Below are positions 19,554 to 38,273 of a stretch of DNA of 64,000 nt, piece by piece. Location of the stretch: positions 31,021 to 95,020 of the forward strand of contig JALHMG010000001.1 in assembly GCA_022844135.1 (NCBI GenBank), given 5' to 3'. Origin of the DNA: Lysobacterales bacterium (GTDB lineage Bacteria > Pseudomonadota > Gammaproteobacteria > Xanthomonadales > SZUA-5). The translations under genes were made by a program, and so were the position numbers. The notes under the pieces are model-generated. The model did not search any database, had not been told where the DNA came from, and worked only from the letters and a program-made list of their open reading frames with translations. The first letter of the stretch is position 1. Each line of letters begins with the position of its first letter.

Positions 19554-19566
19554 TGAGGCAGTAGTT

Positions 19567-20678: not shown

Positions 20679-20727
20679 TTGTTTTCGTAACTCTTCGAAC
20701 GCCAGTGGGCTTCTGTACCTATCATAC

Positions 20728-20952: not shown

Positions 20953-21012
20953 TGTCTTGCGCTGAGTCCCTTGGACCCGATGGAGTGTTAGTAAACCATC
21001 GAGGACAGGAAG

Positions 21013-21315
21013 ATGCCAAAGCAAAGCGAGTTGCCCGCGTCGAAGCGGGTCGAGGCGGTATTGGCGCTGTTGCGCAAGGAGGAGCCGGCGGTGCAGATTG
21101 CACGGCGCTACGAGATCAGCGAGCAAACGTTGTACCGGTGGAAGGACGAATTCATTGCCGGCGGTAGTGCGCGCATTGAGGGCAAGGATGGCGATTCGTC
21201 GCAGGCTAAAGAGGTAGGCCGCTTGCAGCGCGAGATCGAGACGCGCGAGCAGGTGATCGGTGAGCTGACGATCGCGAACCGCATCCCAAAAAAGCTCTCG
21301 GGCCCGTCCGTCTGA
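21013..21315 (+). CDS. IS3 transposase OrfA (HTH)
   Basis: VQIARRYEISEQTLYRWKDEF HTH, leucine-zipper-like tail, in-frame A AAA AAG heptamer. Confidence 0.9.
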   Translation: MPKQSELPASKRVEAVLALLRKEEPAVQIARRYEISEQTLYRWKDEFIAGGSARIEGKDGDSSQAKEVGRLQREIETREQVIGELTIANRIPKKLSGPSV

Positions 21316-22336: not shown

Positions 22337-22419
22337 ACCGGTGCGGTCTCACAAAAACCGGTTGGGCGGGTCCAAGGGAATTGGGAGGCAAGACATCAGG
22401 TCGGTTCCAAGCGCGGTGG

Positions 22420-22545
22420 TCACCGACACGGGCAGCGCGTTGATCGAGACTTTGTTCGGCAGAGCTGTGGCGAGAGGAGTGTCGTTGGCAAATCGCTCAG
22501 GACGACGTTTGAAAGCGACATCCAGAGCCGCCGCGCATGTTGACG
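22420..22545 (-). pseudogene. C-terminal remnant of another IS3-type transposase
   Basis: AAALDVAFKRRPERFANDTPLATALPNKVSIN resembles the recalled 'LDAAYAAHPERF…P.LP..VWIN' tail of some IS3-family transposases. Confidence 0.6.
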
Positions 22546-22695
22546 GCGATGGCAATATCAAACGCAGACTGCCAATGAACGCCTGCCTAAGGTCGGCGCC
22601 GGGAGGGTCACGGGAGCGAAGTAAGCGATGACTCTGTATAAGACGGGTTGCCCTGATTAACGTCAGTTACAATGGCTGCTTAAGGGAACCTTCAG

Positions 22696-23631
22696 TTGGA
22701 GCGAGCGAGGATTTGCGTGACATCTTTTCGGAGCAAGCCTTTTTTCGTTGTAGGTGATGTCATGTTGGACAGATTCGTTCATGGACAGGTGACGCGCCTG
22801 TCGCCCGAGGCGCCCGTCCCCGTCCTTACGGTCTCGGGGCACGAGGATGTTCCAGGTGGAAGTGCAAACGTTGCCGTCAACTGCCGCGCGCTGGGACGAG
22901 AAGTGAGGCTCTTCGGATTGGTAGGACAGGATGCAGAGGCCACAATTCTCACTGATGCCCTAGAGTCCAAAGGTATAAGAACGCGGCTCTTTCCAACCGC
23001 AGCACCGACCATCTTAAAAACCCGACTGATTGATGGAAGAAGGCACTTGTTTCGCTTTGATCTTGAGCAGCGCTTTGTTCCTGGCGATGCTGCTGCGCTT
23101 GCTCGGGCTGTCTTCGCTGAATTAAATGAGGCAGGCGCCGTGCTCCTGTCGGACTATGCCAAAGGAACCTTGGCTGAGCCGCAAGCATATATTCGCGCTG
23201 CCCGAAGCGCGGGATTGCGAATATGCGTTGATCCCAAACATGTGCCGTTTGATAGGTATTTCGGGGCACACGTTTTGACCCCCAATGCCATTGAGTTCGA
23301 AGCCGCGACAGGCACAATAGTGGGTGGTTCCGGCTTTAATGATATCGCAGCCGCTCTATGCGCATCGCTCTCTCTTGAGGCACTGCTTGTTAAAGCGGGC
23401 AATCGAGGTATGTACCTGATTCAACCATACAAGCCGGTTCGACACATCGAGGCGCGCCCGGTCGTCGCAGTCGACGTGACCGGTGCGGGTGATGTAGTCC
23501 TCGCGGTCCTGTCGGATGGCTTGGCACGCGGACTGAGCTACGAAGACGCCGCTGTGCGCGCAAATTCAGCAGGTGCCATATCGGTAACGCGCAGAGGAAC
23601 TGGGGTGGTGGCAAATCATGAACTTGACTAG
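22696..23631 (+). CDS. hldE: D-glycero-manno-heptose-7-phosphate kinase (HldE/RfaE domain I, PfkB fold)
   Basis: VGDVMLDRF..G…RLSPEAPVPV, PGGSANVA, TILKTR, SDYAKG, DPK, TPN..EF, DVTGAGD. TTG start uncertain. Confidence 0.92.
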   Translation: MERARICVTSFRSKPFFVVGDVMLDRFVHGQVTRLSPEAPVPVLTVSGHEDVPGGSANVAVNCRALGREVRLFGLVGQDAEATILTDALESKGIRTRLFPTAAPTILKTRLIDGRRHLFRFDLEQRFVPGDAAALARAVFAELNEAGAVLLSDYAKGTLAEPQAYIRAARSAGLRICVDPKHVPFDRYFGAHVLTPNAIEFEAATGTIVGGSGFNDIAAALCASLSLEALLVKAGNRGMYLIQPYKPVRHIEARPVVAVDVTGAGDVVLAVLSDGLARGLSYEDAAVRANSAGAISVTRRGTGVVANHELD

Positions 23632-24148
23632 CGCCGAAATCTTGCGAAACAAAGCTTTTAACGAGATTGAGATTGCCAGAAAAGCTGGAAAGCGGGTCGT
23701 CTTCACCAACGGTTGCTTCGATCTTTTGCACCCCGGTCATGTGAGAAACCTACAAGAAGCACGCTCGCTAGGCGACTGCTTGGTCGTCGGCTTAAATACT
23801 GACGAGTCCGTTGCTCGATTAAAGGGCAGTAATCGCCCTATTCTGCCCCTCAACGCCCGAATTGAGATCCTCTCCGCGCTTTCCTGCGTGAACTGGGTAA
23901 TACCTTTTGGCGATCAAGCTGACGACACGCCCAAGAAATTGATCAGCGAAATAATGCCACATGTTCTCGCGAAAGGTGGGGATTATGAGATGACAGAGAT
24001 TGTGGGCGCCGACACCGTGACTGCAGGCGGCGGTGAAGTAGTTCGTCTAACGTACCATCACGATTGGTCCACGACCAGCTTAATTCGCGCGATCAAATCC
24101 GGGAGCGCTATTCGGCGCGTTCTTCACCCAGCGGATTACGAGAGCTAA
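23618..24148 (+). CDS. hldE: Heptose-1-phosphate adenylyltransferase (HldE/RfaE domain II)
   Basis: VFTNGCFDLLHPGHV, VVGLNTDESVARLKG..RP, KGGDY, STT. Confidence 0.92.
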   Translation: MNLTSAEILRNKAFNEIEIARKAGKRVVFTNGCFDLLHPGHVRNLQEARSLGDCLVVGLNTDESVARLKGSNRPILPLNARIEILSALSCVNWVIPFGDQADDTPKKLISEIMPHVLAKGGDYEMTEIVGADTVTAGGGEVVRLTYHHDWSTTSLIRAIKSGSAIRRVLHPADYES

Positions 24149-25139
24149 TAATGCGATTCAGAGGGTAATACAATTTTCGTGTCGGATATCCTTCCTTATC
24201 CACACACTTGGCACAAAGCGGAATACCACTTAGCGAATGGCTCGCGTGCGCACCCCTGAATCGGCGCAAATTCTCGCTATTCCAAATTTCACGCAAAGAC
24301 TGGTTATTTACGTTTCCGAGTACTTGTTTGCCGTCATAATCGAAGCAACAGGGTACGACACGCCCATCCCACAGCACAGTTAAGGATGTCCACGGTTTGT
24401 CGCAAACAAAATCAGGCGGCTGAATCTCATGAACCCGCAGCGATTTTATCCGTTCGTTTGTATTATCCCACGCTACATAACGCTTGACCTTCACTCTGTC
24501 AATGCCTGGCCAATTCTTCCACTTACGCAACCAATCATTCACTTCGTGGCGGTTCTCTCCCTGCTCAACGATTTGTAGGATGACTCGAGGCCGGGATCTA
24601 CCCGCCTCGGCCTTGTAATCCAGGAGCTTCCTCAACCTTGATTCGGCTAATTCGAGATTGCCGGCGGCACGCCCGCGCACTCGCTCATTGGTCGCCGCCG
24701 TCACGCCATCGAGAGAAAGAACTAGCTCTTCGAGTCCGCTATCTACCAAAGAAGCAATCCGATGATCAGTAAGGAGTATCGGATTAGCGGATAGAAATCC
24801 CTTGACCCCAGACTGGGAAGCATAATTCAGGATTCTTGCGATATCCGGATGAAGCAAGCTGTCTCCGAAATGATGAAGCAGGACGGATCGAGTCGAATAT
24901 CGAGCTTCGTCGATGATCTTCTTGAAGACATCGAATTCCATGAATCCCAATGGTCGCGTCATCTGATTGGTGCGGGGGCACATCTCGCAAGTCATTGGGC
25001 AGTGATTTGTCAACTCGATCTGGAAGACTACTGGGTAACCTCCAGGCTCGATGCGCTGCCAGTTGTAATAGAACTGAAGAACCTCCGCGTTCACCCATTT
25101 GGCGAACGTGTCAAAGAATCGCGCATCCACTAGTCCCAC
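24108..25139 (-). CDS. Radical SAM enzyme with SPASM/twitch domain
   Basis: ELTNHCPMTCEMCPR (CxxxCxxC); CDKPW…WDGRVVPCCFD…LGN…W…CAKC. Confidence 0.92.
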   Translation of the reverse strand: MGLVDARFFDTFAKWVNAEVLQFYYNWQRIEPGGYPVVFQIELTNHCPMTCEMCPRTNQMTRPLGFMEFDVFKKIIDEARYSTRSVLLHHFGDSLLHPDIARILNYASQSGVKGFLSANPILLTDHRIASLVDSGLEELVLSLDGVTAATNERVRGRAAGNLELAESRLRKLLDYKAEAGRSRPRVILQIVEQGENRHEVNDWLRKWKNWPGIDRVKVKRYVAWDNTNERIKSLRVHEIQPPDFVCDKPWTSLTVLWDGRVVPCCFDYDGKQVLGNVNNQSLREIWNSENLRRFRGAHASHSLSGIPLCAKCVDKEGYPTRKLYYPLNRIISSRNPLGEERAE

Positions 25140-25993
25140 TCCCCCTCTGCGTTCCTCAGCAGATTACCACCGACGCCAGCAATAGAGCACGAAACCAGCG
25201 TAAGGCGCTTAGCCTCGTACATCGCTACGGTTGCTGCGACACCAGCATTTAGAGATTCAAGTCCCAGGTGGCCTCCCGGAATACTTACTAGTTCGCTGCA
25301 GTGCTTTCGTGTCCTTTGTCGCAAACCTTCCCCCTCGGCTCCAATGACAAATGCCAGCTTCTCATGGGATACAAGATCCGGAAGTATTCTGCTGCCTCTC
25401 TCATCCAGCCCGACCACATGGTATCCGATGTCCCGAAGTGTCTCGATGGCTAATACAAGATTAGCAACGCAGTAAAATTCAATTAACTCGGCGCCGCCGA
25501 CGGCGTACCTGACTACTTCTGCAGTAGGTGTCGCCGCTCGATGTCGCATATATATTATCGCATCAAATCCGAAAAAGGCCGCTGATCGAATTATTGTTGC
25601 CAAATTCTGAGGGTTCGAAACCTGATCCAGCAACAGGACTGATTTTGCGTTAACAAGATCTTGCAAGTCCCTCTCAACGCCTATAATCCGCGGATTGGCA
25701 AAGCAGAAGATGCCTTGGTGGTTGTCTTCGCCAACGAGTTGTCCAGCCCTCCTGAACTCTGGCCATGAAAGAAAAGCCACAGGTATATTGTGCCGCTGAG
25801 CAAGGGAAATCGCTTCTTGATGGTAGTCGGGCTTGCCCGCGAGCACGAGCTTTAGGACGTCGCCAGGACGCATCATCAGAGCGGCACGAACCGAATGCTT
25901 ACCATAAATTTTTTCTTTTCCACTACGTTCCGAATCGGTATCGGCCCCAGGCACGGAGTTCGCGTCGGTTCGCGGCTGAAACTGCTTGCGCAT
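25130..25993 (-). CDS. TrmH/SpoU-family RNA 2'-O-methyltransferase, RlmB-like
   Basis: IYGKHSV, LDQVSNPQNLATIIRSA, IGAEGEGLRQRTRKHCSELVSIP, ESLNAGVA. Confidence 0.88.
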   Translation of the reverse strand: MRKQFQPRTDANSVPGADTDSERSGKEKIYGKHSVRAALMMRPGDVLKLVLAGKPDYHQEAISLAQRHNIPVAFLSWPEFRRAGQLVGEDNHQGIFCFANPRIIGVERDLQDLVNAKSVLLLDQVSNPQNLATIIRSAAFFGFDAIIYMRHRAATPTAEVVRYAVGGAELIEFYCVANLVLAIETLRDIGYHVVGLDERGSRILPDLVSHEKLAFVIGAEGEGLRQRTRKHCSELVSIPGGHLGLESLNAGVAATVAMYEAKRLTLVSCSIAGVGGNLLRNAEGEWD

Positions 25994-26191
25994 GACTGTA
26001 TGCTTCTCAAAGTTTGCACTACGATGCCGAAAAGGACGAGCCGCCAAAGCGGTGAGAATTTCTCTTCTAACGTTCGTCGGGTGAACTGCTTAGCCTACTG
26101 CAACATCCGCATCGCCGCAAGGGCTGGATGCGAGTTGAGCAGACTAGGCCAAGAGAAATCCCTCCGATAATGTATCTCGACGTTTTCAACA

Positions 26192-27565
26192 TTGCAAGAG
26201 GACTCAATTGAAGTTATCGTTCTGGAACATTGTGCCAGCCCCAGGGTTGTGACGGTTATGGATAGGAAGGAATGTCAAGCATTGTGGGAGCGCTGCCAGA
26301 CGGAAAAATCAAAGATGTTTGCCGAGAATGGCAGCGAGAAGTTCTCACAGATCAGGGCAGCCAAGGTCTGGAATTATTGGGCTCTTTCAATGGTGAGCGA
26401 GCGCAAATCCCTTGAGCGTCAGGGGCGGTTTTTCGGGCGCATGCGCTGGCTTTGGGAAAGCCAAGCTCGTGTCGACTTCAGTGATTCGGTTTTCAGGCGG
26501 GCTTTGCGTGACCGAGCTCGAAGTGACCGTCCGCATTCCGAACGGAAATTTTCGCTGGCATCGTCGGGGGAGGCCATTGATTTCCGTTGGTTCGTTTTCC
26601 CTGGTTTAGTTGATTTTTCAAGATGCGCTTTCGATTCCTGGGTTTGGTTTGGAGCGACCAGATTCTGCGGACGCACCGAATTCCGCGATTGCAATTTCGC
26701 GGATTGGGTAGGATTTCTTAGTAGTCAAGCACAAGAATCACCTTGCGAGTTCCATGATATTTGCCGGTTCGATGGCTGCACCTTTTCTGATGATACCTAC
26801 TTCAGAAGTGCTGTTTTTCACGGTTTAGTATATTTCAGCGGCTGCGACTTCGCGGGAAAGGCGGATATGTCCCTCGCTCAATTCAACAAAGGCGCGAGTT
26901 TTTTCGGAGCGCGGTTTAATCAGGGAGTTATCTTAAATGGCGTCGCTTTTCGGCGAGTTCCGGACTTCTCCTTTGCGACTTTTAGTGTCGCACCATCAAT
27001 TCCGAAGAAGGTTGTGATGGAAGGTCTTGGAAAGCCGATCAATTACGTGAGAGAGAAGGAGGGCATGCAGCCCGTTCTAGAGGAATGTTACCGTGCGCTT
27101 AGAAGGATTGCCTCGGACAGCCGTGATTGGGGGGCGGAGCGCGATTACCTTGTGCTGGAACAGGAGTCCCGGGCTGATGCGTCGTTGACTTTTCGGGTTT
27201 TGCTTCGCTGCTTCGCACTAGGTTGCGATTACGGACGAAGTGCGGTTCGTCCATTGTGTTTTTGGTTCATAAATGCATTAGTGTTCTCGGGAGTATACGA
27301 GGCTATGCGGTATTCGATTGGGTCATTCACCTGGCGTGGTTTTTTCCGTGAGAGTTTTTACATCGCCGTTTGCCGGAACTTTCCGGTTCTCGGGCAAGCA
27401 AATTCACGCGCTTATGATACGGCAGTAACCGGTCTCCTGGGGAGCTCGGATGTTCGAATGGCATGGTTTGATTTCCTTGTAGTTCTGCAGAGCACGCTCG
27501 CTGCGATATTTTTGTTCTTGGTTGCTATGTGTATTCGAAACGCACTGCGCTATGACAGCGAATAG
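26192..27565 (+). CDS. Pentapeptide-repeat protein with C-terminal membrane helices (start uncertain; ATG at 26258 possible)
   Basis: Repeated F-x4-F pattern (VDFSRCAF…FGATRF…FRDCNF…FDGCTF…FRSAVF…FSGCDF…); DYGRSAVRP followed by hydrophobic segments. Confidence 0.75.
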   Translation: MQEDSIEVIVLEHCASPRVVTVMDRKECQALWERCQTEKSKMFAENGSEKFSQIRAAKVWNYWALSMVSERKSLERQGRFFGRMRWLWESQARVDFSDSVFRRALRDRARSDRPHSERKFSLASSGEAIDFRWFVFPGLVDFSRCAFDSWVWFGATRFCGRTEFRDCNFADWVGFLSSQAQESPCEFHDICRFDGCTFSDDTYFRSAVFHGLVYFSGCDFAGKADMSLAQFNKGASFFGARFNQGVILNGVAFRRVPDFSFATFSVAPSIPKKVVMEGLGKPINYVREKEGMQPVLEECYRALRRIASDSRDWGAERDYLVLEQESRADASLTFRVLLRCFALGCDYGRSAVRPLCFWFINALVFSGVYEAMRYSIGSFTWRGFFRESFYIAVCRNFPVLGQANSRAYDTAVTGLLGSSDVRMAWFDFLVVLQSTLAAIFLFLVAMCIRNALRYDSE

Positions 27566-27592
27566 CACGATCTCGGCGAAGAACAGCTGATA

Positions 27593-28525
27593 CTAAAGGG
27601 ATTCGAGAAAGCGCAGGAGATTCGGCATGTGTTCGCCCCAGGCAATGACACTGGGATCATGCCGCACGCACGGTTTGGCACTAGCTTCGGCCAGTGCGCC
27701 AATGAAGGCAATTGTGTCCTCTGGCGTCGTGACCACATTCGGTAGGCCGAGAATGTGGCTGTGTTGGAGTTTGTTTACAACAACCATTTGAGTGCCTGAG
27801 GCATATTGATCAGATACCACTCCGCTGGCATAGGGCGACGATGGTGCGGCGGTCCAACACCAAAGCAGATCGCATGCTCGAAGGCGGTCAAAACGGTCTC
27901 GATTGCTCCATTGCGAGTACGCAAGATGAAGTCGACTGGGATATAAGGCTGCTATCGAGGCTAATTCTTCGAGCACGCCCGGGGAGGGTTGCTTCCATGG
28001 GCTCAAGACTAGGTAGATTGCGACGGCGGGGATCTGATGGAGGATTGCCTCACTGATTCTCGGGTATTCGCGTTCATATCTGAGAAACCCGTTCGTTCCA
28101 ATTAGAAATCTGTCCAAGGGTAATCCAAACTGGGTGCGTAATCTCCTTCGCGTCGTGTTTTCCGAAAAAGTCTCTGACGGATGAGGGAACCAATGACCGC
28201 GCTTTGCGCCTTCAATGAGCGAGGGTACCATAGCCACTATCGCAGCAACGGAGTCGTAAAGCGCCCTCGCATCATCGGAGTGTGGCATTAGTACAACGGG
28301 TTGCCGACAATCCATAATAAAATCATGTGCACTGTTTATTGGTAATACTTCCCCATGGTAATGAAGAAAAACGATATCGGCGCGGTCGGCGCGGAGTTCT
28401 GCACTACATTTCACTTTCGCACCAGCGCGGCGAAGTGCTGTCGCCATTCGTTTAGAGAAATAACCGATGCCACAACGATCATTTAGAGTGGTAGCGATCT
28501 GGAGTATGTGTAGGGGACGACGCAT
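27593..28525 (-). CDS. Glycosyltransferase-like protein (GT-B/GT4-like)
   Basis: N-terminal HILQI…CGIGYF…A.ALR and central IGTNGFLRYER. Last gene of the six-gene operon. Confidence 0.6.
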   Translation of the reverse strand: MRRPLHILQIATTLNDRCGIGYFSKRMATALRRAGAKVKCSAELRADRADIVFLHYHGEVLPINSAHDFIMDCRQPVVLMPHSDDARALYDSVAAIVAMVPSLIEGAKRGHWFPHPSETFSENTTRRRLRTQFGLPLDRFLIGTNGFLRYEREYPRISEAILHQIPAVAIYLVLSPWKQPSPGVLEELASIAALYPSRLHLAYSQWSNRDRFDRLRACDLLWCWTAAPSSPYASGVVSDQYASGTQMVVVNKLQHSHILGLPNVVTTPEDTIAFIGALAEASAKPCVRHDPSVIAWGEHMPNLLRFLESL

Positions 28526-28540
28526 GGGAATGGTGAATAG

Positions 28541-29353
28541 TTACGTTTCGTTGAAGGGATTGCATGGTCTGCCTTTTGCGTCGCGGACTGTCAGTTCGTG
28601 AGCAATCGGCGTAACACTAACTTCACGACGCCTCCAAAAAACGTCCAGGTCCGATCCACTGGCGATCTGGTCGGAAGTGTAGTTGGAGGCGAATGTGTAA
28701 CGATCGGAACTTGTTTTCGCGCTGCTGTTTTTCAACTGGAGACGATAAGGGTCCAGTCGACTTTGTTCGCACAAGCGCCATTCTGTACGCATTTCAACGC
28801 AGCTTGGAATGTTGATGTTGAGGCATGACACGTTTGGATTTAATCCCCTTAAGGCCAACCGCGCCAATTGGGAGGTCACTGTCATCGCGGGCTTCCAAAC
28901 CTCAGGATCAAAGGTCTTGCCGAAGTGCGAGTCATCTTCTTCCATGCTTACTGCCATACTAGGCACTCCGTGGCTGCCTGCCTGGGCGGCCGCTGCTATA
29001 GTTCCGCTTAAGTGTACGGTGTACCCAAGGTTCTCGCCGGCGTTTATCCCACTTATACATAGATCTGGTGGCTTCGAAACAAGTTCCAGAAGTGCAATGC
29101 TAATAACTTGCGATGGGGCTCCGGCGATGGTGTAACCTTTAACCATCCCTTCTGATAGATGAAAATTGTGGGGCGAAACATTGCCGATGTCGGGTCCGCG
29201 AAGGAAGGCGCGTGACATGCATGTCTGATTAACACGTGGGCAAACAACCAACACCTCGCCAAGTGTTTGAGCTACTTCAATCGCGGCGCGAAGGCCAAAC
29301 GAATCTGGACCGTCGTCGTTGGTTACGAGGATGTAGGGTGGTCTAGTTGACAT
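28541..29353 (-). CDS. surE: SurE-family 5'/3'-nucleotidase
   Basis: ILVTNDDG, SGINAGENLG…SGTIAAA, NINIP, VSVTPI. Confidence 0.9.
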   Translation of the reverse strand: MSTRPPYILVTNDDGPDSFGLRAAIEVAQTLGEVLVVCPRVNQTCMSRAFLRGPDIGNVSPHNFHLSEGMVKGYTIAGAPSQVISIALLELVSKPPDLCISGINAGENLGYTVHLSGTIAAAAQAGSHGVPSMAVSMEEDDSHFGKTFDPEVWKPAMTVTSQLARLALRGLNPNVSCLNINIPSCVEMRTEWRLCEQSRLDPYRLQLKNSSAKTSSDRYTFASNYTSDQIASGSDLDVFWRRREVSVTPIAHELTVRDAKGRPCNPFNET

Positions 29354-30353
29354 GATTCGCGTTCTGGTTTTGGGATGTGGCTTTAGCGAATGCGTTAACG
29401 ACGTCCTTGGTCGTGATCGCTTCTAAGCCTGGATCGATGGTCTCGCCGTATGGGTTGTGTTCTTGTCCTTTCCAGATCGTGATGTGTTCGGTGCAGGTTT
29501 TAGGTGGCCCCCAACAACCGGGCGAGACAGGACCGAACAGTGTCACCGCGCTCGTTCGGGTTGCCGTTGCTAAGTGCGCGACACCACTGTCAACAGACAG
29601 AACGAGTCCAGCGGCGGCGACGCGATGAAGCAAGTCGCAAGCCGTCGTATTGAGTGAAACGCTGGTAACGTCGACTCCCGCTTGGTTGGCAATCGTGAGA
29701 GCACGATCTCGCTCCCGCAGCGTGCCTGTTAGCTGCAACTTCCATCCCATGGCCTGGACTTTTCTTGCCACCTCCGTCCAACGATCTTGCGGCCAAAGGC
29801 GAGCCGGGCTTCCGGCGCCAGCGTGCAGAATTACGGGTGCATTTCTGTCCAGAGGACGCGGAGTACGCAGAAAGAGGTCGTTGGCGTCGAGATCGATACC
29901 CAAAAGGCCAAGCAGGCGAGCCCATCGGGAGAAAATGTGATCGGCAAAATCAAGGAACGGAGCACTTGATGTTTCGGGTATCGCGGGGTGACGGTAGCTC
30001 AATATTTGACTCGGTCGGAGTGCTCGGAGCAAGGGCAACAGCTCATGACCGGGAGTCCTTAGGGAAACGATTAGCTCAACCCTTTCTTTCAGCTCCAATA
30101 CGGAAGCCAGTACATTTGAATCAGCGGCTCGGTGATCTGTGGGACCAATTGTGTCTGGATTCGAGCGATCGGAGAGGATTAAGTCGCACAGATTCAAATA
30201 TCCAGCAAGATCCTTGAGCCACGACGGGCACGTCATTATTATCTTCTGGGTTGGGTAGGTTCGACGCAAAGCGCGCATTGCGGGAATCCCCGTCATCAGG
30301 TCGCCGAGCCCATTGTGTCGTAAAACCAAGATAGCGCCCTTTCGGCCCATCAT
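29343..30353 (-). CDS. Glycosyltransferase family 9 (heptosyltransferase-like)
   Basis: LVLRHNGLGDLMTGIPAMRALRR, LHAGAG…RLWP..RW, VDSGVAHLA.A…TLFGP. Confidence 0.88.
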   Translation of the reverse strand: MMGRKGAILVLRHNGLGDLMTGIPAMRALRRTYPTQKIIMTCPSWLKDLAGYLNLCDLILSDRSNPDTIGPTDHRAADSNVLASVLELKERVELIVSLRTPGHELLPLLRALRPSQILSYRHPAIPETSSAPFLDFADHIFSRWARLLGLLGIDLDANDLFLRTPRPLDRNAPVILHAGAGSPARLWPQDRWTEVARKVQAMGWKLQLTGTLRERDRALTIANQAGVDVTSVSLNTTACDLLHRVAAAGLVLSVDSGVAHLATATRTSAVTLFGPVSPGCWGPPKTCTEHITIWKGQEHNPYGETIDPGLEAITTKDVVNAFAKATSQNQNANHVN

Positions 30354-30354
30354 G

Positions 30355-31473
30355 CTAGTCACTCAGCCTCGATTTGTAGGGCGCCAAACATGCTTGGCGA
30401 ATGATTTGTGCAACCTGATGGGCTCCTCGGCCAGAGTTATGACTGACAGTCCTGCGCACGTGTCCAGCCATTTGTAACGGGGATAGTCCAGAGCGTAAAG
30501 ACTCCGTTATTTCGGCCCGCTTGGCAGGATCCTTGCGAGCCTCCGCCAAAGCGCTGTAGATTGCATTCACTACCTTTTCCTCACCTGCAGGTCGTAACGC
30601 TTCTATCATTCCGGTCGACAGCACGCTATCCGGCCAATTGAGTGCGGAGCACTCGGGATCCACAAACAGGCGCGTATTTAGGATCTGACTCAGATTTTGT
30701 GGCGGCAACAAGATGGACGGCAAGCCTATTTGCATTGCTTGGAAGATAGTCGTGCTGCCCGGTGAGGTGAGTAGAAGGTCACAAGTCCTTAGCAACTGCT
30801 CAAAGACATGACCGCTCTGCACACCGACGACAACGTCATTTCCGAAGCGCTGCCGTATATTGCTTAACCAGTCGGACCCGATGTTGCCGCATACGCCAGC
30901 GATGGAAACCGAAGCCGCCTCAAGCGCGCCAAGCACGCCAGGCAAGACAAGATCGACATAGTCCAGAGTTCCACAAAGGTGGCTATGCACACCTCCCACG
31001 TTCACTACAACTCCGGCGCCGCCTGTGCGACGCCTCGGCTGCGGAACGATAGGCTCCACCCAACAAAAGTCGCGTCTATTTCGAAGGCACGAGGCTAGTG
31101 GCAAAATCTCGTCCGGGTATCGCTGTGCGCAATAACATACCGTGGCGTTAGGCAACGGGACCTCATTTCCATTAGCCCACAGGTACGGCAAACTATCAAC
31201 ATAAACAACAGGTATTCCAAGCGATCCGAGGTAATTCGCTCGTTCTGGGTCGTTAATCACGAGCGCCGCGTTCGCGTCAGCAAGGGGCGCATCAACAAAC
31301 TCGTGATTGAAGTCGTCGAGCGCTAGTATTTGTGTCGACATCGGCGGCGGTTCATGAAGTATGATCCGGTGCGGTGGGAGGTGCTTGAGAATTAAGCGAA
31401 GTTTGCCCAGACTGCCCCAGCCGAAGTGACAAGCAGAAACTACCAGCATCGCGCTGTTGCGTGTTGAACCCAT
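30355..31473 (-). CDS. blsD: Cytosylglucuronate (CGA) synthase-like glycosyltransferase (BlsD/MilC-like)
   Basis: N-terminal FGWGSLGKL motif as recalled for CGA synthases; YVDSLPYLW, VVNVGG, SPGSTT, LPPQNLSQ. Operonic with the BlsE-like gene and an aminotransferase. Confidence 0.65.
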   Translation of the reverse strand: MGSTRNSAMLVVSACHFGWGSLGKLRLILKHLPPHRIILHEPPPMSTQILALDDFNHEFVDAPLADANAALVINDPERANYLGSLGIPVVYVDSLPYLWANGNEVPLPNATVCYCAQRYPDEILPLASCLRNRRDFCWVEPIVPQPRRRTGGAGVVVNVGGVHSHLCGTLDYVDLVLPGVLGALEAASVSIAGVCGNIGSDWLSNIRQRFGNDVVVGVQSGHVFEQLLRTCDLLLTSPGSTTIFQAMQIGLPSILLPPQNLSQILNTRLFVDPECSALNWPDSVLSTGMIEALRPAGEEKVVNAIYSALAEARKDPAKRAEITESLRSGLSPLQMAGHVRRTVSHNSGRGAHQVAQIIRQACLAPYKSRLSD

Positions 31474-31477
31474 GGAA

Positions 31478-32722
31478 TTAATCTCGTGTCCCGGCGAAGT
31501 GTCGCCACACCTTCAGTGTTCCTTCGCAGCTCATCTCGGCCTCTTGCATCGGAAGCCAGGGCCCTGTTTCCAATTCAAAAAGCCGTGAGTGGGCGTCGCG
31601 CGCCACAGGACAATCATCTGCGGTCATCGCTGCCGAATTTTTGCGGAGATAACTGGTTAGCCAGTCTATTCGAAACAAAGGCCGATGCGGGATGCGGCAG
31701 CTTATATTTTCGGCGGAAATCGCCTTTACCAAATCGTCGCGTATTGATCGCGCGCCATCAGGGACAAGAACAGGGCATTTAAAGTAGACACTCTCGCCCC
31801 ATTCCGGTTCTTTGATCGTCAGAAGCCCATGACTCAAGAAAGATCGACCATAATACCGGCCGGCGTTCTGGCGATCCGAGATCTCTTCCGTCAGTCTGGA
31901 TAATCCATCCAGACCGATTATTGCTGGGAATTCTGCCATTCGGCAACTGAAACCTAATCTCTCATAGTCGTCCCAGTCGGGGCCTTTGCCGTAGTTAGAC
32001 AAAGTCCGTAATGTGTTGTAACGTGAATGGTCGGCGCAGATAACCATTCCGCCCTCACCACAAGAAATATGCTTTCGTACTGAAAATGCGAAAGCGGCGT
32101 AGTCGCCAAACGTGCCTACCCTGCGTCGTCGTACTGTGGCGCCAAACGCTTGCGCACAGTCTTCGATCAAAGTGAGGCCTTCGGTTGAGCACAACGTTGA
32201 AATACTGTCCATATCTGCAGGATAGCCCCAGAAATGAACCACCAAGACGGCTTTGGTGCGCGGACTAATTAGTTCGCGCGCCCGAGTCGCCGACATGGTT
32301 AACGATTGAGGTTCAACATCGCAGATCACGGGTATGGCGTTGTTTTGCACGATAGCGGAAGCTGCCGCTACGAAGCAAAACGCAGGTACAATCACCTCGT
32401 CCCCCGGGCCGATACCTGCCGCTGAGAGCGCTAAGCTCAGCGCTGACGTCCCAGAATTCACGGAGACCCCGCGGATGTCCGCTCCGAAAAATGCAGCGAA
32501 TTCGGTTTCGAATCTACGTGCCCATGGCCCTGAGTAATACAAGGACAGGAGACCAGAATCCATCATTTCAAGAACCCGGGCCCGAGCAGTCGTGGATATG
32601 CGGACTCCTGTGGGCAAAGGCAGCTGGCGAGTTGGCGTACCACCGAATATTGCCAGCGGATTCTGGTTTGTTTTGCGCATACCATTAGGCATTGGTGATT
32701 TCCGAAATTTCAATATTCCCAT
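31478..32722 (-). CDS. DegT/DnrJ/EryC1/StrS PLP aminotransferase (BlsH-like by context)
   Basis: NSGTSAL, PAFCF.A, VHFWG, IEDCAQAFG, FSVRKHISCGEGG (PLP lysine). Confidence 0.92.
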   Translation of the reverse strand: MGILKFRKSPMPNGMRKTNQNPLAIFGGTPTRQLPLPTGVRISTTARARVLEMMDSGLLSLYYSGPWARRFETEFAAFFGADIRGVSVNSGTSALSLALSAAGIGPGDEVIVPAFCFVAAASAIVQNNAIPVICDVEPQSLTMSATRARELISPRTKAVLVVHFWGYPADMDSISTLCSTEGLTLIEDCAQAFGATVRRRRVGTFGDYAAFAFSVRKHISCGEGGMVICADHSRYNTLRTLSNYGKGPDWDDYERLGFSCRMAEFPAIIGLDGLSRLTEEISDRQNAGRYYGRSFLSHGLLTIKEPEWGESVYFKCPVLVPDGARSIRDDLVKAISAENISCRIPHRPLFRIDWLTSYLRKNSAAMTADDCPVARDAHSRLFELETGPWLPMQEAEMSCEGTLKVWRHFAGTRD

Positions 32723-33684
32723 GGGTCAACATTTCCCACATCATCAATCCGATTGCTGTAGGCGGCCGCTGTCGTGGAACAGCCTTTGCAGGTTCGATGT
32801 CCGTCGGTACGGTAATAGCGAACATGCTCATTCCATTCTGAATTGGTCAGCGACCACGTGTCATCGTTCTGGACGACAGCGCCGTCGGTTGCGTCTTCAC
32901 CAGTTCGATGCGGAAGCAAACTGCAGCCAAAAGCCTTTTTGATTTTTGGGTCTATATATATAACATTCCCGACGACATTACAGAGGCTGCCGGTGGGTTT
33001 CGGACATACTCCAGCGTCGAAGAACAAATCCTGGGCTGAGCGGCTCTCGCCGTAAAAGCGCAGACCCATTGGAACCAAGAGGCCTGGCTCAGTGTGATAA
33101 AGGCGGTCGCACGAATCAATCACAGCTTGCCGATCAGGATAGACGATTGGGCGGTCAAGCTTTAACGCGGTTAGCTCCCATTGATTGATTCCCACATCGG
33201 TGAAGAGTTTTTGTAATTCGAGCATATCTTGATAGTTGTGAGGTCCAACCACAGTATTTACTCGCGTGCGGATGCCTAGTTCTTTAGCCTTGCTGATCCC
33301 GTCGATACAACGGTCGAATAGGCCCGGAAATCCTCTTATTTTGTCGTGATTATCCCGTGTGCCGTCAATGCTGACAACGATCTGATCCAGGCCGCTGGCG
33401 GATAGTTCTGAAATTTTGGTTGGTAAGGAAGCTCCGTTTGTAATTATGGAGCTCTTCAATTCGAATTGCTTTATAATCCTCACGAATTCTGAGATTTCCA
33501 GGTGCAAAAGTGGCTCTCCACCTGTCAGACGAACGTACTCGACCCCAACTCCTTTGGCCTTGTCTAGTATCGCGAACAAATCACTCTTACTAAATCTATA
33601 TTGATCCTTGGAGCGAGCAAAGACGCACATGAAGCAATCTGCGTTACATGCCTCCAGGATTCGTATGAACAAGTACTTTTTCAT
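32710..33684 (-). CDS. blsE: Radical SAM cytosylglucuronate dehydratase/decarboxylase (BlsE/MilG-like)
   Basis: YLFIRILEACNADCFMC.FA.S.D.YRF and YVRLTGGEPL.H match recalled BlsE N-termini closely; C-terminal Cys for an auxiliary cluster. Confidence 0.78.
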   Translation of the reverse strand: MKKYLFIRILEACNADCFMCVFARSKDQYRFSKSDLFAILDKAKGVGVEYVRLTGGEPLLHLEISEFVRIIKQFELKSSIITNGASLPTKISELSASGLDQIVVSIDGTRDNHDKIRGFPGLFDRCIDGISKAKELGIRTRVNTVVGPHNYQDMLELQKLFTDVGINQWELTALKLDRPIVYPDRQAVIDSCDRLYHTEPGLLVPMGLRFYGESRSAQDLFFDAGVCPKPTGSLCNVVGNVIYIDPKIKKAFGCSLLPHRTGEDATDGAVVQNDDTWSLTNSEWNEHVRYYRTDGHRTCKGCSTTAAAYSNRIDDVGNVDPWEY

Positions 33685-34200
33685 TATTTCCCGACTTCTG
33701 AGCATTGGTGTAGTTGGCAAATTGCTAATCGACTTGCTCAGATGATCTGAAAGGCTGAGCGATGTTTCTTCGTTTCCATGGTCTGATCGAGTTCTGGCGA
33801 GAGCTTGCGTTGCGATTCGCGCTTACGCTTAGATGAGCACTTGAGCTGCACCGAATGCTCGCTCAATCGGAAGCGTTTTCGCTATCTGGGAATTCTCGCA
33901 AATTCTGACTTTGGCTTTCTGCTTAGCTGACCGGCGCCGTCCTGGGGTTGAGACCTCAATGGAGGCCACTTTCTACGCTGGGCATCGGTCAGTTGCACTT
34001 GGCTAGGTGCGGGGGATGTCTGGTACGAGTCGTGTCTGGCGCGCATCGATGTGCCGAGCTTCTTGTTCTACCTGCGATCCACTGATGCGACGCAGTGCTG
34101 TTATCGTCGTTGGGAACGTCTTCGACCGCGTTGCAAAAACTGAAGATTGGCAACCAACGCCGTATTGCGCGCGCGACAATTCGTCAGTGGTGGTTCGGAA

Positions 34201-34638
34201 GGGCGTTGAATGGCCATCGTGCAGAACATTGCGGAGCGGCTGGAACAGGTGATGGAGGTGGTGCGCGAGCAGCACCTGGATGTAGAAACGGCGGCGCGGG
34301 AGTTTGGTTTCCCCTCGCTCGATGCGTTCTTTACGGCGTTCGACAAGCACTATGGCGTGCGCGTCGAAACCGTTTCGCTGAGCAGCGCCGATGGTGCGCA
34401 GCCATAGCGTTTGCGGAAGACCTGAGAGAAGTAGGACAGGTTGTCGAACCCGCTGGCGTAAGCGACCTCAGACACGCTGCCGCGGCGCTCGCGGAGCAGC
34501 GCCTCGGCGCGCTGCAGGCGATGTTCGCGCAGGATTTCGCTGGGAGTTGCTTCAAGCGTTTGCTTGCAGCGGCGGAACAGGGTAGCGCGGTCCATGTGCA
34601 GCGCATGAGCCAGTTCGGCAACGCCGAAGGTTGGATCA
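34201..34638. repeat. 438-bp direct repeat, copy 2 (right boundary of island)
   Basis: Matches 19116-19553 with 2 mismatches; lies within the intact hybrid sensor gene's 3' end. Confidence 0.97.
34210..34407 (+). CDS. 65-aa mini AraC-type HTH protein (copy 2)
   Basis: Protein identical to 19125-19322; overlaps the sensor gene's 3' end convergently by 58 nt. Confidence 0.6.
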   Translation: MAIVQNIAERLEQVMEVVREQHLDVETAAREFGFPSLDAFFTAFDKHYGVRVETVSLSSADGAQP

Positions 34639-37600
34639 GCAAGATGTTTGGATACGGCGTCGGACAGACGCTGCCGGAAGCGATCGTCGGCCGGGCCTTC
34701 AGTGCTCGCCGCCGGGGGCGGCGGTTGGAGGGTGGTTGGCGTCGGCGGCTCTGGCGCCGCAAGAAAGCTCTGCCGCAAACGCCGCCGGGCATCGAGCAGC
34801 GCTTCGATGCGCGCGATCAACTCGCTGGTGTCGAAGGGCTTGGTCAGATAATCATCCGCGCCCGCTTCCAACCCGGCGACGACGTCGCGCTTGTGCGACC
34901 TGGCGCTGAGCAAGAGCAATGGAACGCCGTGGGTTTCTGGATTACGCCGCAGCGCGTGCGCCAGCTGCAGACCATCCATACCCGGCATCATCACATCGCT
35001 GATCACGATGTCGGGAAGCGCCTCGCCGATCCGCTCCAGCGCCTCATCGCCATCGCTCGCCGTCATCACGCTGTAGTTGTCGCCGAGACGATCGGCCAGA
35101 TAGCGGCGTAGCTCGCTGTGATCGTCGACCACCAGAACCGTGGGGCGCACGCCGGCCGCTGGCCTGGAGAGTGTGGGCAAGCCTGCATCGTCGGATGCGA
35201 CGCCGGTGACGAACGCCGCTGCGCTGTCGAGCGCTGCTGGCGGAAAGTGCTGGTTGCCGCGTTTGAGCCAGAGCACGAAACAAGCGCCTTGTCCCGGTTC
35301 GCTGAGCAGCTCGATGCGCCCCTGATGCAGATCGATAAGCTCACGCACCAGCGCCAGACCGATGCCCGTACCTGGTGCGTCGCTGGGCGCGTTGCCGCCC
35401 TGATAGAAGCGCTCGAAAATCTTCGCCTGTTCCTCGACGGGAATACCGGGGCCACTGTCTTCGACCTCGATGCCCACCTCAGTCGGCGTAGGTACCAGGC
35501 GCAGCGTAACGCGGCCGCCGTTGGGCGTGAACTTGAGCGAATTGCCGAGCAGGTTGCTGACCATGCGCTCAAGCTGATCCTGGTCGAACCATAGCTGCAG
35601 CGGATCGTTCAAACCCTCGCCGCGGAGCGTGATGCTTTTTCCCGCCGCGCGCGGCATGAAAGCGTCGATTTCACGCCGCAGTTGCTCAGCCAGGTCATGC
35701 TCGGCGACGTGCAGCTCGAAGCGCCCGGCGGCGAGCCGACTCAGATCGAGAAGCTCGCTGACCATCTTGAGCAGGCGCTTTGCGTTCTCGCGGGCGCTTC
35801 CAAGAACGCTGCGCAGCGGCGCGCTCAAGGCGCCGAAGCGCTCGTTCAGGGCATCTCCAAGGGGCCCCAGGATCAACGTCAGCGGCGTGCGAAATTCATG
35901 GCTGACATGCGCAAAGAAGCGCGTGCGCGCCTCGGACAGCACGCGTATTTCTTCGGCTTGCGTGCGAATGTCCAGGGTACGATCGGCGATCACTCGCTCC
36001 AGACGCACGCGCTCGGCTTCCAGCTTGCGTGTACGCCAGCGTGCGTAGCTCCAGGCCAGCAGCGTGATCGCGATCAGCGCCGCGATCAGTGCGGCGGCCC
36101 GCGCGGCGGTGGTCTCGAACCAAAATGGGGCGACCTCGATCTCGAGGATCAGTGGCTCGATGCTGCGCGTGGCGCGCACTGATTGCGCGGATATCACAAG
36201 CTGATGCGTTCCGGCCGACAGGCTCGGCAACTGCACTTCGGGTTTCTCCAGCGTGGCGGCCCCGCCGTCGTCCAATCGATACGACCACGCGACGGCGTCG
36301 TTCTCCGCAAAGGCCGCCAGGGCCGCCTGCACGCGCACATCGCGAGTGGTGCTCGGCAGATCGACCCGCGCCGCAGATGAGCCGGCGAGCGTTTCGCCAC
36401 TGACCGCATCGGCAACGCTGCCTAGAAGCACATTCGATTGCAGCGCCGGTACGTCGGCCGGCGCTGCGACGCGCATCAGGCCGCGGTCTTCAGCAAGCCA
36501 GAGTGTGCCGTCGTCGTCGCGATAGAGGTGCCGCCACGGATGCCATACCAGGCTCAGCGGCCGCGCAGCCACGGCGTAACGGCCGTCGGCCTGACGGCGA
36601 AACGACTTTACCTCGTAGCGGTCGGCGGCCCAGCGCTGGCCGTCCAATGCGTCAGTCATTACCCGTAGCTCGCCGCTGAATCGGGGATCGCGAATCAAGG
36701 TCTCGCCGGACAGTCGGAAAACGCCTTCGGCAACGATCAGCGTCGCGCCGCCCTCGTCGTCGCGGGCGAAGGTAATGCGTCCAGCGGTCAGGCCATCGGC
36801 CGCCCCGAAGTTGCGAATCCGAACGCGCGGCCATGAGGCGAGTTGCTCGACGCTTTGCACGCCGACGTTGCCATCGCCGCTCAGCCACAGCCGATCGCCG
36901 CTGACATCGGCATGCAAATCGAATCCGGGGGCCAACGCGACCGAGCCTGGGTCCACTTCGATGCCCGCATCGCCTTCGCGGAAGCGGCGCAAACTGTTGC
37001 CGGAGATGCCGTAAATGTGGTCGCCGTGGCGCGCCAGCGAGGTGAATCGAAGGCCGCTCAGAATCTGAACCGGCGCGGCATTCTCGTCGGGCGGGAGCAG
37101 CGCCAGGCCATTTCCGACGCCGGCAAGAATCCCGTGTCTGGTTTTCAGCAGCGACCAGACACTGGCGCGATCGATTCGGTAAGGGCGCAGTTGCGCAGGA
37201 CTGTAATCGCCGCTCGGTCGGAGTGCCATCAGGCCGGTGCGGCCGGCGACGTACAGCACGCCGTCGATCCGCGTCAGGCGCTCGATCTGCATCGCGCCGT
37301 CGCTGCGCCCCCAGCGCGTCAGGCTGTTGTCCTGCTGCAGCCGCGCGATGCCGCCATCCAGCGTCAGCCAGACGCCGCCTTCGCGATCGGTCATGATGTC
37401 GGTGATGCGCTGGCCGGGCAGGCGCGCGAGCGCGATGTGGCGGCGCAATGCGCCATCCGGCGCCAATTGGTACAGGCCGCCGAACCGCGTGCCGATCGCG
37501 ATGTCGCCGTTCGGCAGTCGCGCCATCGACTCGATGCGCTCATCCACCATCCTTTGGCGCAGAGATTCCTCCAGCGGCACGGTGCGCCAGGCACCATCGA

Positions 37601-38273
37601 TGCGCTCGAAAATCCTTTCCGCGTCGCGCGCCAACCACGGCTCCCCGTCGTCGGCGGCGAAATCCAGCTCGCCCTCGGGCAGGCCGGTGTTGTCGCGTGG
37701 CTCGAAGGTCTGCGTTGCTTCGTTGTAGCGCATCAATCCCGAGCCGATTTCATGCAGCCAGATGCCGTCGGCGCGCTCGCGCAATTCGCCGCCGCCGCCA
37801 CTGCGTTGCCGCCAGGTCCATTGGCCTCGATCGTGGGTGACGAAATACGTTTGCGACAGGAAGAAAGATCGTGTTCCATGCTGCGCGACGCGGCCGATCG
37901 GGCCGACGTCGGGCGCATCGGGCGGCCGCTCGAAAGCGTTGAAAGCCCAGACGCCTTTTTCGTCCGGCCGAACTTCGCCGAGCGCCACTGCCGTGGCAAC
38001 GATCAAGCGGTCGTTGCGGACCGACACATCGTAGGTGCGATCGCCGGGAATGGCGACATCCACAAAGCGGGTGCCGTCGAAGAAATTCAATCCCGGGGAC
38101 GTGGCGATCACCAGCACGCCATCGCTGCGTTGGCGCATGCGCCAGACTTGTCCGATTTCCCGGCCGTTGGCTGCCGTGTGCGCACTGATGATTGGCGGGC
38201 CTTCTTCCGGGTGCGGCGCCGCACCGGCGACGGTGGCGAATGCCAGAAGCGCGAGCAGCGTGCTAACTCGCAT
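34350..38273 (-). CDS. Hybrid sensor histidine kinase / receiver / AraC regulator with periplasmic beta-propeller and YYY-like domain
   Basis: Signal peptide, propeller repeats (DREGGVWL…), PFWFET TM helix, SHEFRTPLT, NLLGNSLKFT, DSGPGI, GTGIGL, receiver SDVMMPGMDG…KPF, C-terminal AraC HTH. Confidence 0.95.
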   Translation of the reverse strand: MRVSTLLALLAFATVAGAAPHPEEGPPIISAHTAANGREIGQVWRMRQRSDGVLVIATSPGLNFFDGTRFVDVAIPGDRTYDVSVRNDRLIVATAVALGEVRPDEKGVWAFNAFERPPDAPDVGPIGRVAQHGTRSFFLSQTYFVTHDRGQWTWRQRSGGGGELRERADGIWLHEIGSGLMRYNEATQTFEPRDNTGLPEGELDFAADDGEPWLARDAERIFERIDGAWRTVPLEESLRQRMVDERIESMARLPNGDIAIGTRFGGLYQLAPDGALRRHIALARLPGQRITDIMTDREGGVWLTLDGGIARLQQDNSLTRWGRSDGAMQIERLTRIDGVLYVAGRTGLMALRPSGDYSPAQLRPYRIDRASVWSLLKTRHGILAGVGNGLALLPPDENAAPVQILSGLRFTSLARHGDHIYGISGNSLRRFREGDAGIEVDPGSVALAPGFDLHADVSGDRLWLSGDGNVGVQSVEQLASWPRVRIRNFGAADGLTAGRITFARDDEGGATLIVAEGVFRLSGETLIRDPRFSGELRVMTDALDGQRWAADRYEVKSFRRQADGRYAVAARPLSLVWHPWRHLYRDDDGTLWLAEDRGLMRVAAPADVPALQSNVLLGSVADAVSGETLAGSSAARVDLPSTTRDVRVQAALAAFAENDAVAWSYRLDDGGAATLEKPEVQLPSLSAGTHQLVISAQSVRATRSIEPLILEIEVAPFWFETTAARAAALIAALIAITLLAWSYARWRTRKLEAERVRLERVIADRTLDIRTQAEEIRVLSEARTRFFAHVSHEFRTPLTLILGPLGDALNERFGALSAPLRSVLGSARENAKRLLKMVSELLDLSRLAAGRFELHVAEHDLAEQLRREIDAFMPRAAGKSITLRGEGLNDPLQLWFDQDQLERMVSNLLGNSLKFTPNGGRVTLRLVPTPTEVGIEVEDSGPGIPVEEQAKIFERFYQGGNAPSDAPGTGIGLALVRELIDLHQGRIELLSEPGQGACFVLWLKRGNQHFPPAALDSAAAFVTGVASDDAGLPTLSRPAAGVRPTVLVVDDHSELRRYLADRLGDNYSVMTASDGDEALERIGEALPDIVISDVMMPGMDGLQLAHALRRNPETHGVPLLLLSARSHKRDVVAGLEAGADDYLTKPFDTSELIARIEALLDARRRLRQSFLAAPEPPTPTTLQPPPPAASTEGPADDRFRQRLSDAVSKHLADPTFGVAELAHALHMDRATLFRRCKQTLEATPSEILREHRLQRAEALLRERRGSVSEVAYASGFDNLSYFSQVFRKRYGCAPSALLSETVSTRTP

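Follow-up and report, generated by a model that had tools for sequence, protein, structure and literature searches.

Do six closely spaced genes in a gammaproteobacterium encode the first steps of a blasticidin-like pathway, and if so, what would such a pathway make in this host? The question is raised by a 64,000-nucleotide stretch of DNA from a Lysobacterales bacterium (assembly GCA_022844135.1, contig JALHMG010000001.1, positions 31,021–95,020; hereafter the window, to which all unprefixed positions refer), in which six minus-strand genes occupy positions 27593–33684. We read these six genes as the core operon of an acquired biosynthetic island, the probable product of which would be a glycosylated 4'-amino cytosine nucleoside, and give this reading a probability of roughly 0.6. 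The original prediction had been of a blasticidin/mildiomycin-type core operon outside Streptomyces. Its gammaproteobacterial host and its relatives of BlsE and of cytosylglucuronic acid (CGA) synthase bear that out, but the cluster as a whole is not of the blasticidin/mildiomycin type, because the peptidyl genes are absent. Judged by gene content, it is a distinct type, linked to heptose and to a GT9 glycosyltransferase, and occurs inside Streptomyces as well.

The operon and its signature enzymes

All six predicted open reading frames (ORFs) were found where they had been placed, and the junctions between them measured −13, +4, −8, −11 and +15 nt, in agreement with the proposed range from a 13-nt overlap to a 15-nt gap. 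The proposed gene order was upheld by family assignments (Pfam and NCBIfam, and fold for the last glycosyltransferase), which gave the following features:

32710–33684, minus strand: BlsE-family radical S-adenosylmethionine (SAM) enzyme, predicted CGA 4'-oxidase/3'-dehydratase (TIGR04466, PDB 7VOB/7VOC, CNADCFMC)
31478–32722, minus strand: DegT-family pyridoxal phosphate (PLP) aminotransferase, predicted 4'-transaminase, not BlsH-type (PF01041, PLP-lysine motif)
30355–31473, minus strand: divergent CGA-synthase-family glycosyltransferase (TIGR04467, family motifs)
29343–30362, minus strand: GT9 heptosyltransferase-family glycosyltransferase (PF01075, E = 2e-19)
28541–29353, minus strand: SurE-family nucleotidase/phosphatase paralogue (PF01975, E = 1e-40, NDDG motif)
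27593–28525, minus strand: compact glycosyltransferase with a GT-B (GT4-like) fold, from a very small family specific to these clusters (AlphaFold2 and Foldseek)

The order of these genes is kept in at least seven independent loci, an arrangement far beyond chance. A scan of the operon for promoters and terminators returned counts at chance level.

Closeness of the signature enzymes to the CHARACTERISED ones was judged against BlsD, BlsE and BlsH proteins from two Streptomyces loci with the canonical blsD-E-F-G-H-I-J-K-L-M order (L014 and L015), and against the NCBI equivalog cut-offs (400 bits for TIGR04466, 300 bits for TIGR04467 and 160 bits for TIGR00186). The radical SAM protein, assigned to Radical_SAM by Pfam, had TIGR04466 ('rSAM_BlsE') as its best NCBIfam family, with 386.6 bits. 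Its residues 2–324 aligned full-length with the solved BlsE structures 7VOB and 7VOC (E = 7e-103), and identity to the BlsE orthologues of canonical bls loci was 48–51%. The quoted motif YLFIRILEACNADCFMC, which contains CxxxCxxC, was located in this protein; the cluster motif itself, CNADCFMC, occupies residues 13–20 of the ATG-start protein, near the N-terminus, and the start at 33684 is supported because BlsE and the closest homologues align from that position on. In a maximum-likelihood tree of 122 homologues, a two-way split with 98% support in the Shimodaira–Hasegawa-like approximate likelihood ratio test (SH-aLRT) separated 82 members, mostly from Streptomyces and Kitasatospora and including the bls-type loci, from 40 mostly metagenomic members, among them the window protein. 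All members of this smaller clade with inspected context are GT9-linked. The proposed match to BlsE thus holds at the level of best family, but the score lies below the equivalog cut-off and the protein falls into a sister clade rather than the canonical BlsE clade itself. An alternative identity as part of a known anti-phage system (PADLOC models) was rejected, the similarity to viperins being only that of radical SAM enzymes in general (81 bits, against 387 for BlsE).

The glycosyltransferase at 30355–31473 was placed best in TIGR04467 ('CGA_synthase'; NCBIfam, 207.8 bits, E = 2.7e-61). Here, too, the expected family was recovered, although at a score under the cut-off and with about 30% identity to BlsD orthologues (E about 1e-40). 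Blocks invariant with the two reference BlsD proteins are FGWGSxGKL, VDSLPxxW, YCAQ, TSPGxTT, LPPQNLSQ and GAxQVA. The first of these, located in the window protein as FGWGSLGKL, had been likened to BlsD/MilC, which proved correct, as real BlsD orthologues have the block in common. Relatives of this glycosyltransferase carry the annotation CGA synthase.

The aminotransferase belongs to PF01041 (DegT/DnrJ/EryC1; Pfam, E = 1.2e-83) and has the PLP-lysine motif (SVRKHISCGEGG). Against three BlsH orthologues it showed 31–32% identity over 218–251 aa, and an unrelated DegT protein elsewhere in the same genome (on C44) matches BlsH equally well; by these comparisons, the enzyme is not of the BlsH type. 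It is 59–69% identical to its orthologues in GT9-type loci, and its best PDB match is perosamine synthetase. With 51.5% identity to the aminotransferase of a CGA cluster in Stackebrandtia endophytica (L017), it is placed in a lineage associated with CGA pathways and not in the BlsH lineage; the Stackebrandtia gene has a Nuc_deoxyrib_tr gene on one side and a CGA-synthase gene on the other, and its cluster also includes a BlsE-like radical SAM gene. One subclade (P0088), tried as a mildiomycin-type locus for comparison with MilD, turned out to be another bls-type locus.

The GT9 gene always follows the CGA-synthase gene in related loci, and a genome-wide search found no second GT9 gene. The island surE is likewise conserved in related loci and is a paralogue, the housekeeping SurE being encoded elsewhere in the genome (on C3). 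The sixth protein had no match in Pfam or NCBIfam, but its AlphaFold2 model (predicted local distance difference test score 78.9) matched TreT, BshA, SenB and PimA in Foldseek with probability 1.0. The label of glycosyltransferase holds because these are compact enzymes of the GT-B/GT4 type. At E ≤ 1e-30 its family comprised only 62 representative clusters among 1.84 billion proteins.

The module in other genomes

The closest relatives of the radical SAM protein (61–62% identity) come from two metagenome loci, L001 and L004, which keep the whole neighbourhood at 55–69% protein identity and carry three further genes, namely a Nuc_deoxyrib_tr gene (BlsM/MilB fold), a paralogue of elongation factor P (EF-P) and a Methyltransf_21 gene. 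More distant loci (about 50% identity) were found in an ENA metagenome, on a 169-kb JGI contig and in a Desulfatitalea metagenome-assembled genome (MAG). They keep the order of radical SAM enzyme, aminotransferase, CGA synthase and GT9; they also have radical SAM/SPASM, SurE, GT4-like, SpoU, EF-P paralogue and HldE/GmhAB genes, and often adjoin integrase/relaxase or Mu-like phage genes. When the GT4-like protein was used as a marker to scan 185,579 species genomes, an uncultured Mycobacteriaceae MAG and Streptomyces sp. MMS24-I2-30 proved to carry the complete cluster, and a Vicinamibacterales MAG a fragment of it. Automated pipelines already label such MAG proteins 'cytosylglucuronate decarboxylase' or 'CGA synthase', so the family outside Streptomyces is already visible in databases.

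The closest named carrier is a cultured alphaproteobacterium, Rhodophyticola sp. CCM32 (L016, CP038492.1:971722-992855). Its seven-gene operon, consisting of a BlsM-like gene followed by the six genes of the window in the same order and at 55–67% identity, stands alone between two same-orientation copies of an insertion sequence (IS) with a DDE transposase (99.6% identical; L016 4710–5479 and 14003–14772). The IS-flanked operon resembles a composite transposon, and chromosomal nuo genes lie directly after it. No orthologue of the radical SAM/SPASM gene was found in the Rhodophyticola genome, and the EF-P paralogue is absent from this copy. Such a stand-alone operon indicates that the six genes are a coherent mobile unit. 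The module is mobile: IS-flanked in Rhodophyticola, close to integrase, relaxase or Mu-like genes elsewhere, and low in GC and bracketed by a repeat in the window.

The surrounding island and its heptose genes

The operon forms the right-hand part of an island of ~15 kb (about 19554–34200), in which the GC content is 51–54% (between about 19.5 and 34.2 kb) as opposed to about 63% outside. Its remaining features, with the repeats at its borders, are:

19116–19553: left copy of a ~438-bp direct repeat, nearly identical to 34201–34638
19567–20256, minus strand: gmhA (TIGR00441, 152.8 bits), the only copy in the genome
within 20139–20873, minus strand: gmhB-like haloacid dehalogenase (HAD) phosphatase (NF006506, TIGR00213), with only weak HAD-family matches elsewhere in the genome
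21509–22336, plus strand: IS3/IS481-type transposase fragment, rve core (PF00665, NF033516, model positions 132–361 only)
22696–23631, plus strand: heptose-7-phosphate kinase of a split HldE (TIGR02198, 282 bits)
23618–24148, plus strand: heptose-1-phosphate adenylyltransferase of the split HldE (TIGR02199, 182.5 bits)
24108–25139, minus strand: radical SAM/SPASM enzyme with a BtrN-like auxiliary domain, predicted sugar oxidation or modification (PF04055, PF13186)
25130–26047, minus strand: RlmB-like SpoU 23S rRNA 2'-O-methyltransferase, candidate self-resistance gene, likely true start near 25993
26192–27565, plus strand: pentapeptide-repeat protein of 457 aa with a hydrophobic C-terminal third (PF13576, E = 8e-17)
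33685–34200: non-coding gap of 516 bp, the position of a BlsM/MilB-like Nuc_deoxyrib_tr gene in the closest relatives
34201–34638: right copy of the ~438-bp repeat, covering the 3' end of a hybrid sensor kinase/AraC gene

A flanking housekeeping protein is closest, at 70%, to that of Ahniella affigens (Lysobacterales, Gammaproteobacteria), and the BlsE family (TIGR04466) had no match in 40 relatives or in 399 other sampled genomes of the class. On this sequence evidence, namely the low GC content, the absence of the BlsE family from relatives and the bracketing 438-bp repeat, the island is horizontally acquired. The repeat consists of the last 289 bp of the sensor-kinase/AraC gene (34350–38273, minus strand) and 149 bp downstream, duplicated, which is the pattern that a single-crossover (Campbell-type) insertion would leave. 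There is no tyrosine or serine integrase in the island, only the IS-type rve fragment. A clean empty site was not found; one genome of the same family (G003) has the sensor-kinase orthologue, with 3' DNA not syntenic with the left flank. An activated-carbon metagenome, which may be the source sample, contains low-depth fragments of the locus, one of which (a contig covering 19125–19619) spans the left junction and supports it weakly. Between the gmhB-like gene and the IS fragment lie two tandem non-coding units (20732–21176; about 85% identical, period about 228 bp). Outside the window, the pentapeptide-repeat protein is conserved only in L004 (39% identity); it may have a role in immunity or at the membrane.

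Together, GmhA, the HldE kinase, the GmhB-like protein, the HldE adenylyltransferase and GT9 make a complete ADP-heptose set, most of it scoring below equivalog cut-offs. Both HldE halves are the only copies in the genome, and as no further heptose or GT9 genes occur in its 5.34 Mb, the set would serve the island and not lipopolysaccharide (LPS). Their families, as assigned by hidden Markov models, are those of the LPS system (WaaC/WaaF of GT9, and GmhA-HldE-GmhB). The island set differs in that all but the adenylyltransferase half fall below the equivalog cut-offs, HldE is split, the island has no HldD epimerase, and neither lipid A/core genes nearby nor another GT9 in the genome accompany it.

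GT9, ADP-heptose genes, a perosamine-synthase-like aminotransferase and GT4-like enzymes are nonetheless typical LPS genes, and ~6 kb to the right of the island there is an ABC-transporter-type polysaccharide/O-antigen locus (40725–64000; Wzt with a C-terminal domain, a UDP-sugar dehydrogenase, an epimerase and an asparagine-synthase-like gene). The module could accordingly be imagined to build a cell-envelope glycan (LPS core, O-antigen or capsule), the resemblance to BlsE and CGA synthase being misleading. We consider this quite unlikely, as Actinomycetota, which lack LPS, carry the same cluster, and as its companions are genes for a nucleotide hydrolase, an rRNA methylase and an EF-P paralogue. 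Moreover, Wzx/Wzy, WecA and lipid-carrier genes are missing from the island, the identity of the radical SAM protein to BlsE is about 50% from end to end, and BlsD-specific motifs occur in the glycosyltransferase.

Predicted pathway, completeness and self-protection

In blasticidin S and mildiomycin biosynthesis, BlsM/MilB release the base, BlsD/MilC form CGA from UDP-glucuronate, BlsE/MilG are proposed to carry out 4'-oxidation and 3'-dehydration, and a DegT aminotransferase then gives a 3',4'-dideoxy-4'-amino nucleoside (PMC12464687, PMC11784345, bioRxiv 10.64898/2026.02.25.707955); BlsE was at first reported as a CGA decarboxylase (PMC3715490). For the island, we infer every step from homology. 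The CGA-synthase-family glycosyltransferase would couple free cytosine with UDP-glucuronate to give CGA. In the nearest relatives the cytosine would come from cytidine monophosphate (CMP) through the BlsM/MilB-like hydrolase, and here, because that gene is missing, from housekeeping metabolism. The BlsE-family enzyme would then oxidise C4' and dehydrate C3', and the DegT aminotransferase would produce the 3',4'-dideoxy-4'-amino nucleoside. GT9 would attach a heptose from ADP-D,D-heptose, provided by the island GmhA, split HldE and GmhB-like proteins, and the compact GT4-like enzyme would attach a further sugar. Finally, the BtrN-like radical SAM/SPASM enzyme and the SurE phosphatase would tailor the product. 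The best PDB match of this second radical enzyme is indeed BtrN, a sugar dehydrogenase (E = 1e-11), and it has orthologues at 52–68% identity in L001, L004, L006, L007 and L008. The 4'-amino-deoxy CGA originally proposed as the product of the first three enzymes agrees with the chemistry currently proposed for MilG and MilD (4'-oxo-3'-deoxy to 4'-amino-3',4'-dideoxy nucleoside), which is the best model for the trio.

The island thus has a BlsE homologue and a CGA synthase relative in common with the Streptomyces blasticidin S cluster (blsD-blsM), with predicted first steps alike (base plus UDP-glucuronate to CGA, radical 4'-oxidation, 3'-dehydration), and its closest relatives also carry a BlsM-like CMP hydrolase. 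Unlike that cluster, it is without BlsF, BlsG (aminomutase), BlsI (ATP-grasp), BlsK, BlsL and a major facilitator superfamily exporter, its aminotransferase is no BlsH orthologue, and its radical SAM enzyme belongs to the sister clade. Instead it adds two glycosyltransferases, the ADP-heptose pathway, SurE, the second radical SAM/SPASM enzyme and the RlmB-like methylase, and it is a mobile module in a gammaproteobacterial host. No peptidyl-tailoring genes (BlsG, I, K and L types; aminomutase, ATP-grasp/ligase, guanidino-methyltransferase) were present in the island, and whole-genome tblastn with BlsD–M of L014 returned only the radical SAM enzyme, the glycosyltransferase, generic DegT matches and one aminomutase-like gene. 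The latter, lysine-2,3-aminomutase-like and the genome's only BlsG-like match, lies beside one of the genome's own EF-P genes (C6:116408-118014); the two are probably an ordinary EpmB/EF-P pair, unrelated to the island.

Compared by class and not by sequence, the enzymes of the mildiomycin pathway (MilB, MilC, MilG and MilD of Streptoverticillium rimofaciens) are alike, but the island has neither a MilA hydroxymethylase nor genes attaching arginine or serine. Septacidin and hygromycin B of Streptomyces, likened here by pathway and not by sequence, are further nucleoside and aminoglycoside clusters that make their own NDP-heptose, starting from sedoheptulose-7-phosphate (PMC9978623). In septacidin the heptose is placed on adenine N6 and a tridomain synthetase is involved, whereas the island combines heptose genes with a CGA-type cytosine pathway and GT9; by analogy, septacidin would come nearest as an earlier case of a nucleoside antibiotic supplied with ADP-heptose.

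Several observations weigh against the nucleoside reading of this island. Both signature enzymes score under their cut-offs, and the low identity of the glycosyltransferase to BlsD (about 30%) means that it might prefer another base or sugar. Which acceptors GT9 and the GT4-like enzyme use, and what SurE and the second radical SAM enzyme do, are guesses, and the self-resistance role of the RlmB-like gene is inferred only. No Nuc_deoxyrib_tr homologue (BlsM/MilB-type hydrolase) was detected in the window or the whole genome, nor did tblastn, even at E = 10, find a BlsM-like remnant in the 516-bp gap upstream of the radical SAM gene. A cluster-type EF-P paralogue is absent from this genome and the Methyltransf_21 gene of the nearest relatives from the window copy, an IS fragment lies inside the island between the gmhB-like gene and hldE, and a transcript search found no RNA runs holding the locus. 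The copy may therefore be incomplete or silent. In addition, no exporter gene was seen in any locus examined, which counts against a secreted antibiotic.

Taken further, these losses (no hydrolase gene in window, gap or genome while the three closest relatives have one, an IS3/IS481 fragment within the island, and the loss of the EF-P paralogue and methyltransferase) would make the island a remnant, its genes being what they seem but no nucleoside being made. We regard this as possible, though rather unlikely. All 13 biosynthetic and resistance ORFs of the island are intact and without frameshifts, and two distant but complete loci, L007 and L008, are likewise without a Nuc_deoxyrib_tr gene, so the BlsM-like hydrolase is not obligatory. 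The genome also encodes a 470-aa LOG-family ORF that, judging by its family, might release free pyrimidine base. With this ORF and two NDP-sugar dehydrogenases in the genome (one at 42374–43645), substrate supply is plausible. Where the hydrolase gene is present (L001, L004, L009, L010 and L016), it argues that the free base is the substrate; in L001, L004 and L016 it lies directly upstream of the radical SAM gene and overlaps its start.

Blasticidin S, mildiomycin and gougerotin exemplify the CGA-derived cytosine nucleosides, which are useful for inhibiting ribosomes and as fungicides in agriculture, and blasticidin-type compounds target the P site or the peptidyl-transferase centre. Against this background, two ribosome-related genes of the cluster are of interest. 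The RlmB-like protein scored 141.2 bits for TIGR00186, below the cut-off, and matched RlmB in the PDB (1GZ0, E = 3e-26). It has the SpoU fold and substrate-binding N-domain in common with RlmB (23S rRNA Gm2251) and with the self-resistance methylases NshR and TsnR, RlmB being the best match. Its gene is conserved in seven of nine related loci and is a second copy, the best other SpoU-family gene, on C26, being taken as the genome's own RlmB. The EF-P paralogue occurs in five loci (L001:7306-7869, L004:8293-8856, L006:9413-9979, L007:6772-7329 and L008:6126-6689); these proteins are full-length, about 32% identical to the two EF-P genes of the window genome, and vary at the loop tip from locus to locus (GKSGA, GNLRA, GKGQA). 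The EF-P paralogue may be a ribosome-protection or immunity factor, and, taken with the RlmB-like methylase, it suggests that the product acts at the ribosomal peptidyl-transferase or P site and that these proteins protect the producer. In the Stackebrandtia endophytica cluster and in a bls-type locus (L023), we also observed an ABC-F-type protein with two ABC_tran domains, which would fit ribosome protection as self-resistance for CGA-type compounds.

The conservation of the EF-P paralogue and the RlmB-like methylase in many related loci also admits a different view, in which the cluster modifies the translation apparatus itself, for example by placing an unusual sugar on the dedicated EF-P paralogue or on rRNA. 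EF-P is rhamnosylated in some bacteria, and relatives of GT9 heptosylate proteins, which favours this view. It is nevertheless highly unlikely in our judgement, given that neither the window copy nor the Rhodophyticola copy includes the EF-P paralogue, that the tip-loop residues of this protein are not conserved across loci, and that the BlsM-like hydrolases and the BlsE-type enzyme point to a free small-molecule substrate.

To our knowledge, all characterised CGA-nucleoside pathways come from actinomycetes and end in a peptidyl product. We found no paper on a heptose/GT9-linked CGA cluster, on any such cluster in Proteobacteria, or on a biosynthetic cluster that includes an EF-P paralogue; the literature does mention a sponge as the source of a blasticidin-type compound. 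Read as the core of a nucleoside island, the locus represents a second architecture, with first steps alike and with sugar tailoring (heptose, another glycosyl unit and a second radical enzyme) in place of peptide tailoring, and this architecture is mobile across phyla. The NCBI equivalog models for BlsE and CGA synthase would then lie just at the edge of a wider family. As a genome-mining lead, the value of the window copy is tempered by its missing first gene, and Rhodophyticola sp. CCM32 and Streptomyces sp. MMS24-I2-30 offer cultured starting points toward a new nucleoside scaffold. More tentatively, and with less confidence than in the core reading, we propose that the products of GT9-linked clusters are a new family of 4'-amino cytosine nucleosides carrying heptose, which would act by blocking the ribosome at its P site or peptidyl-transferase centre, with self-protection by the RlmB-like methylase and, in most relatives, by EF-P, and that the package moves between at least four phyla, which it would have crossed on transposons, integrative elements and prophages. 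The cluster type opens the question of whether an RlmB or EF-P paralogue can be an antibiotic-immunity factor; if the proposal is true, the EF-P paralogue would add a new kind of protein to the ribosome-protection factors.

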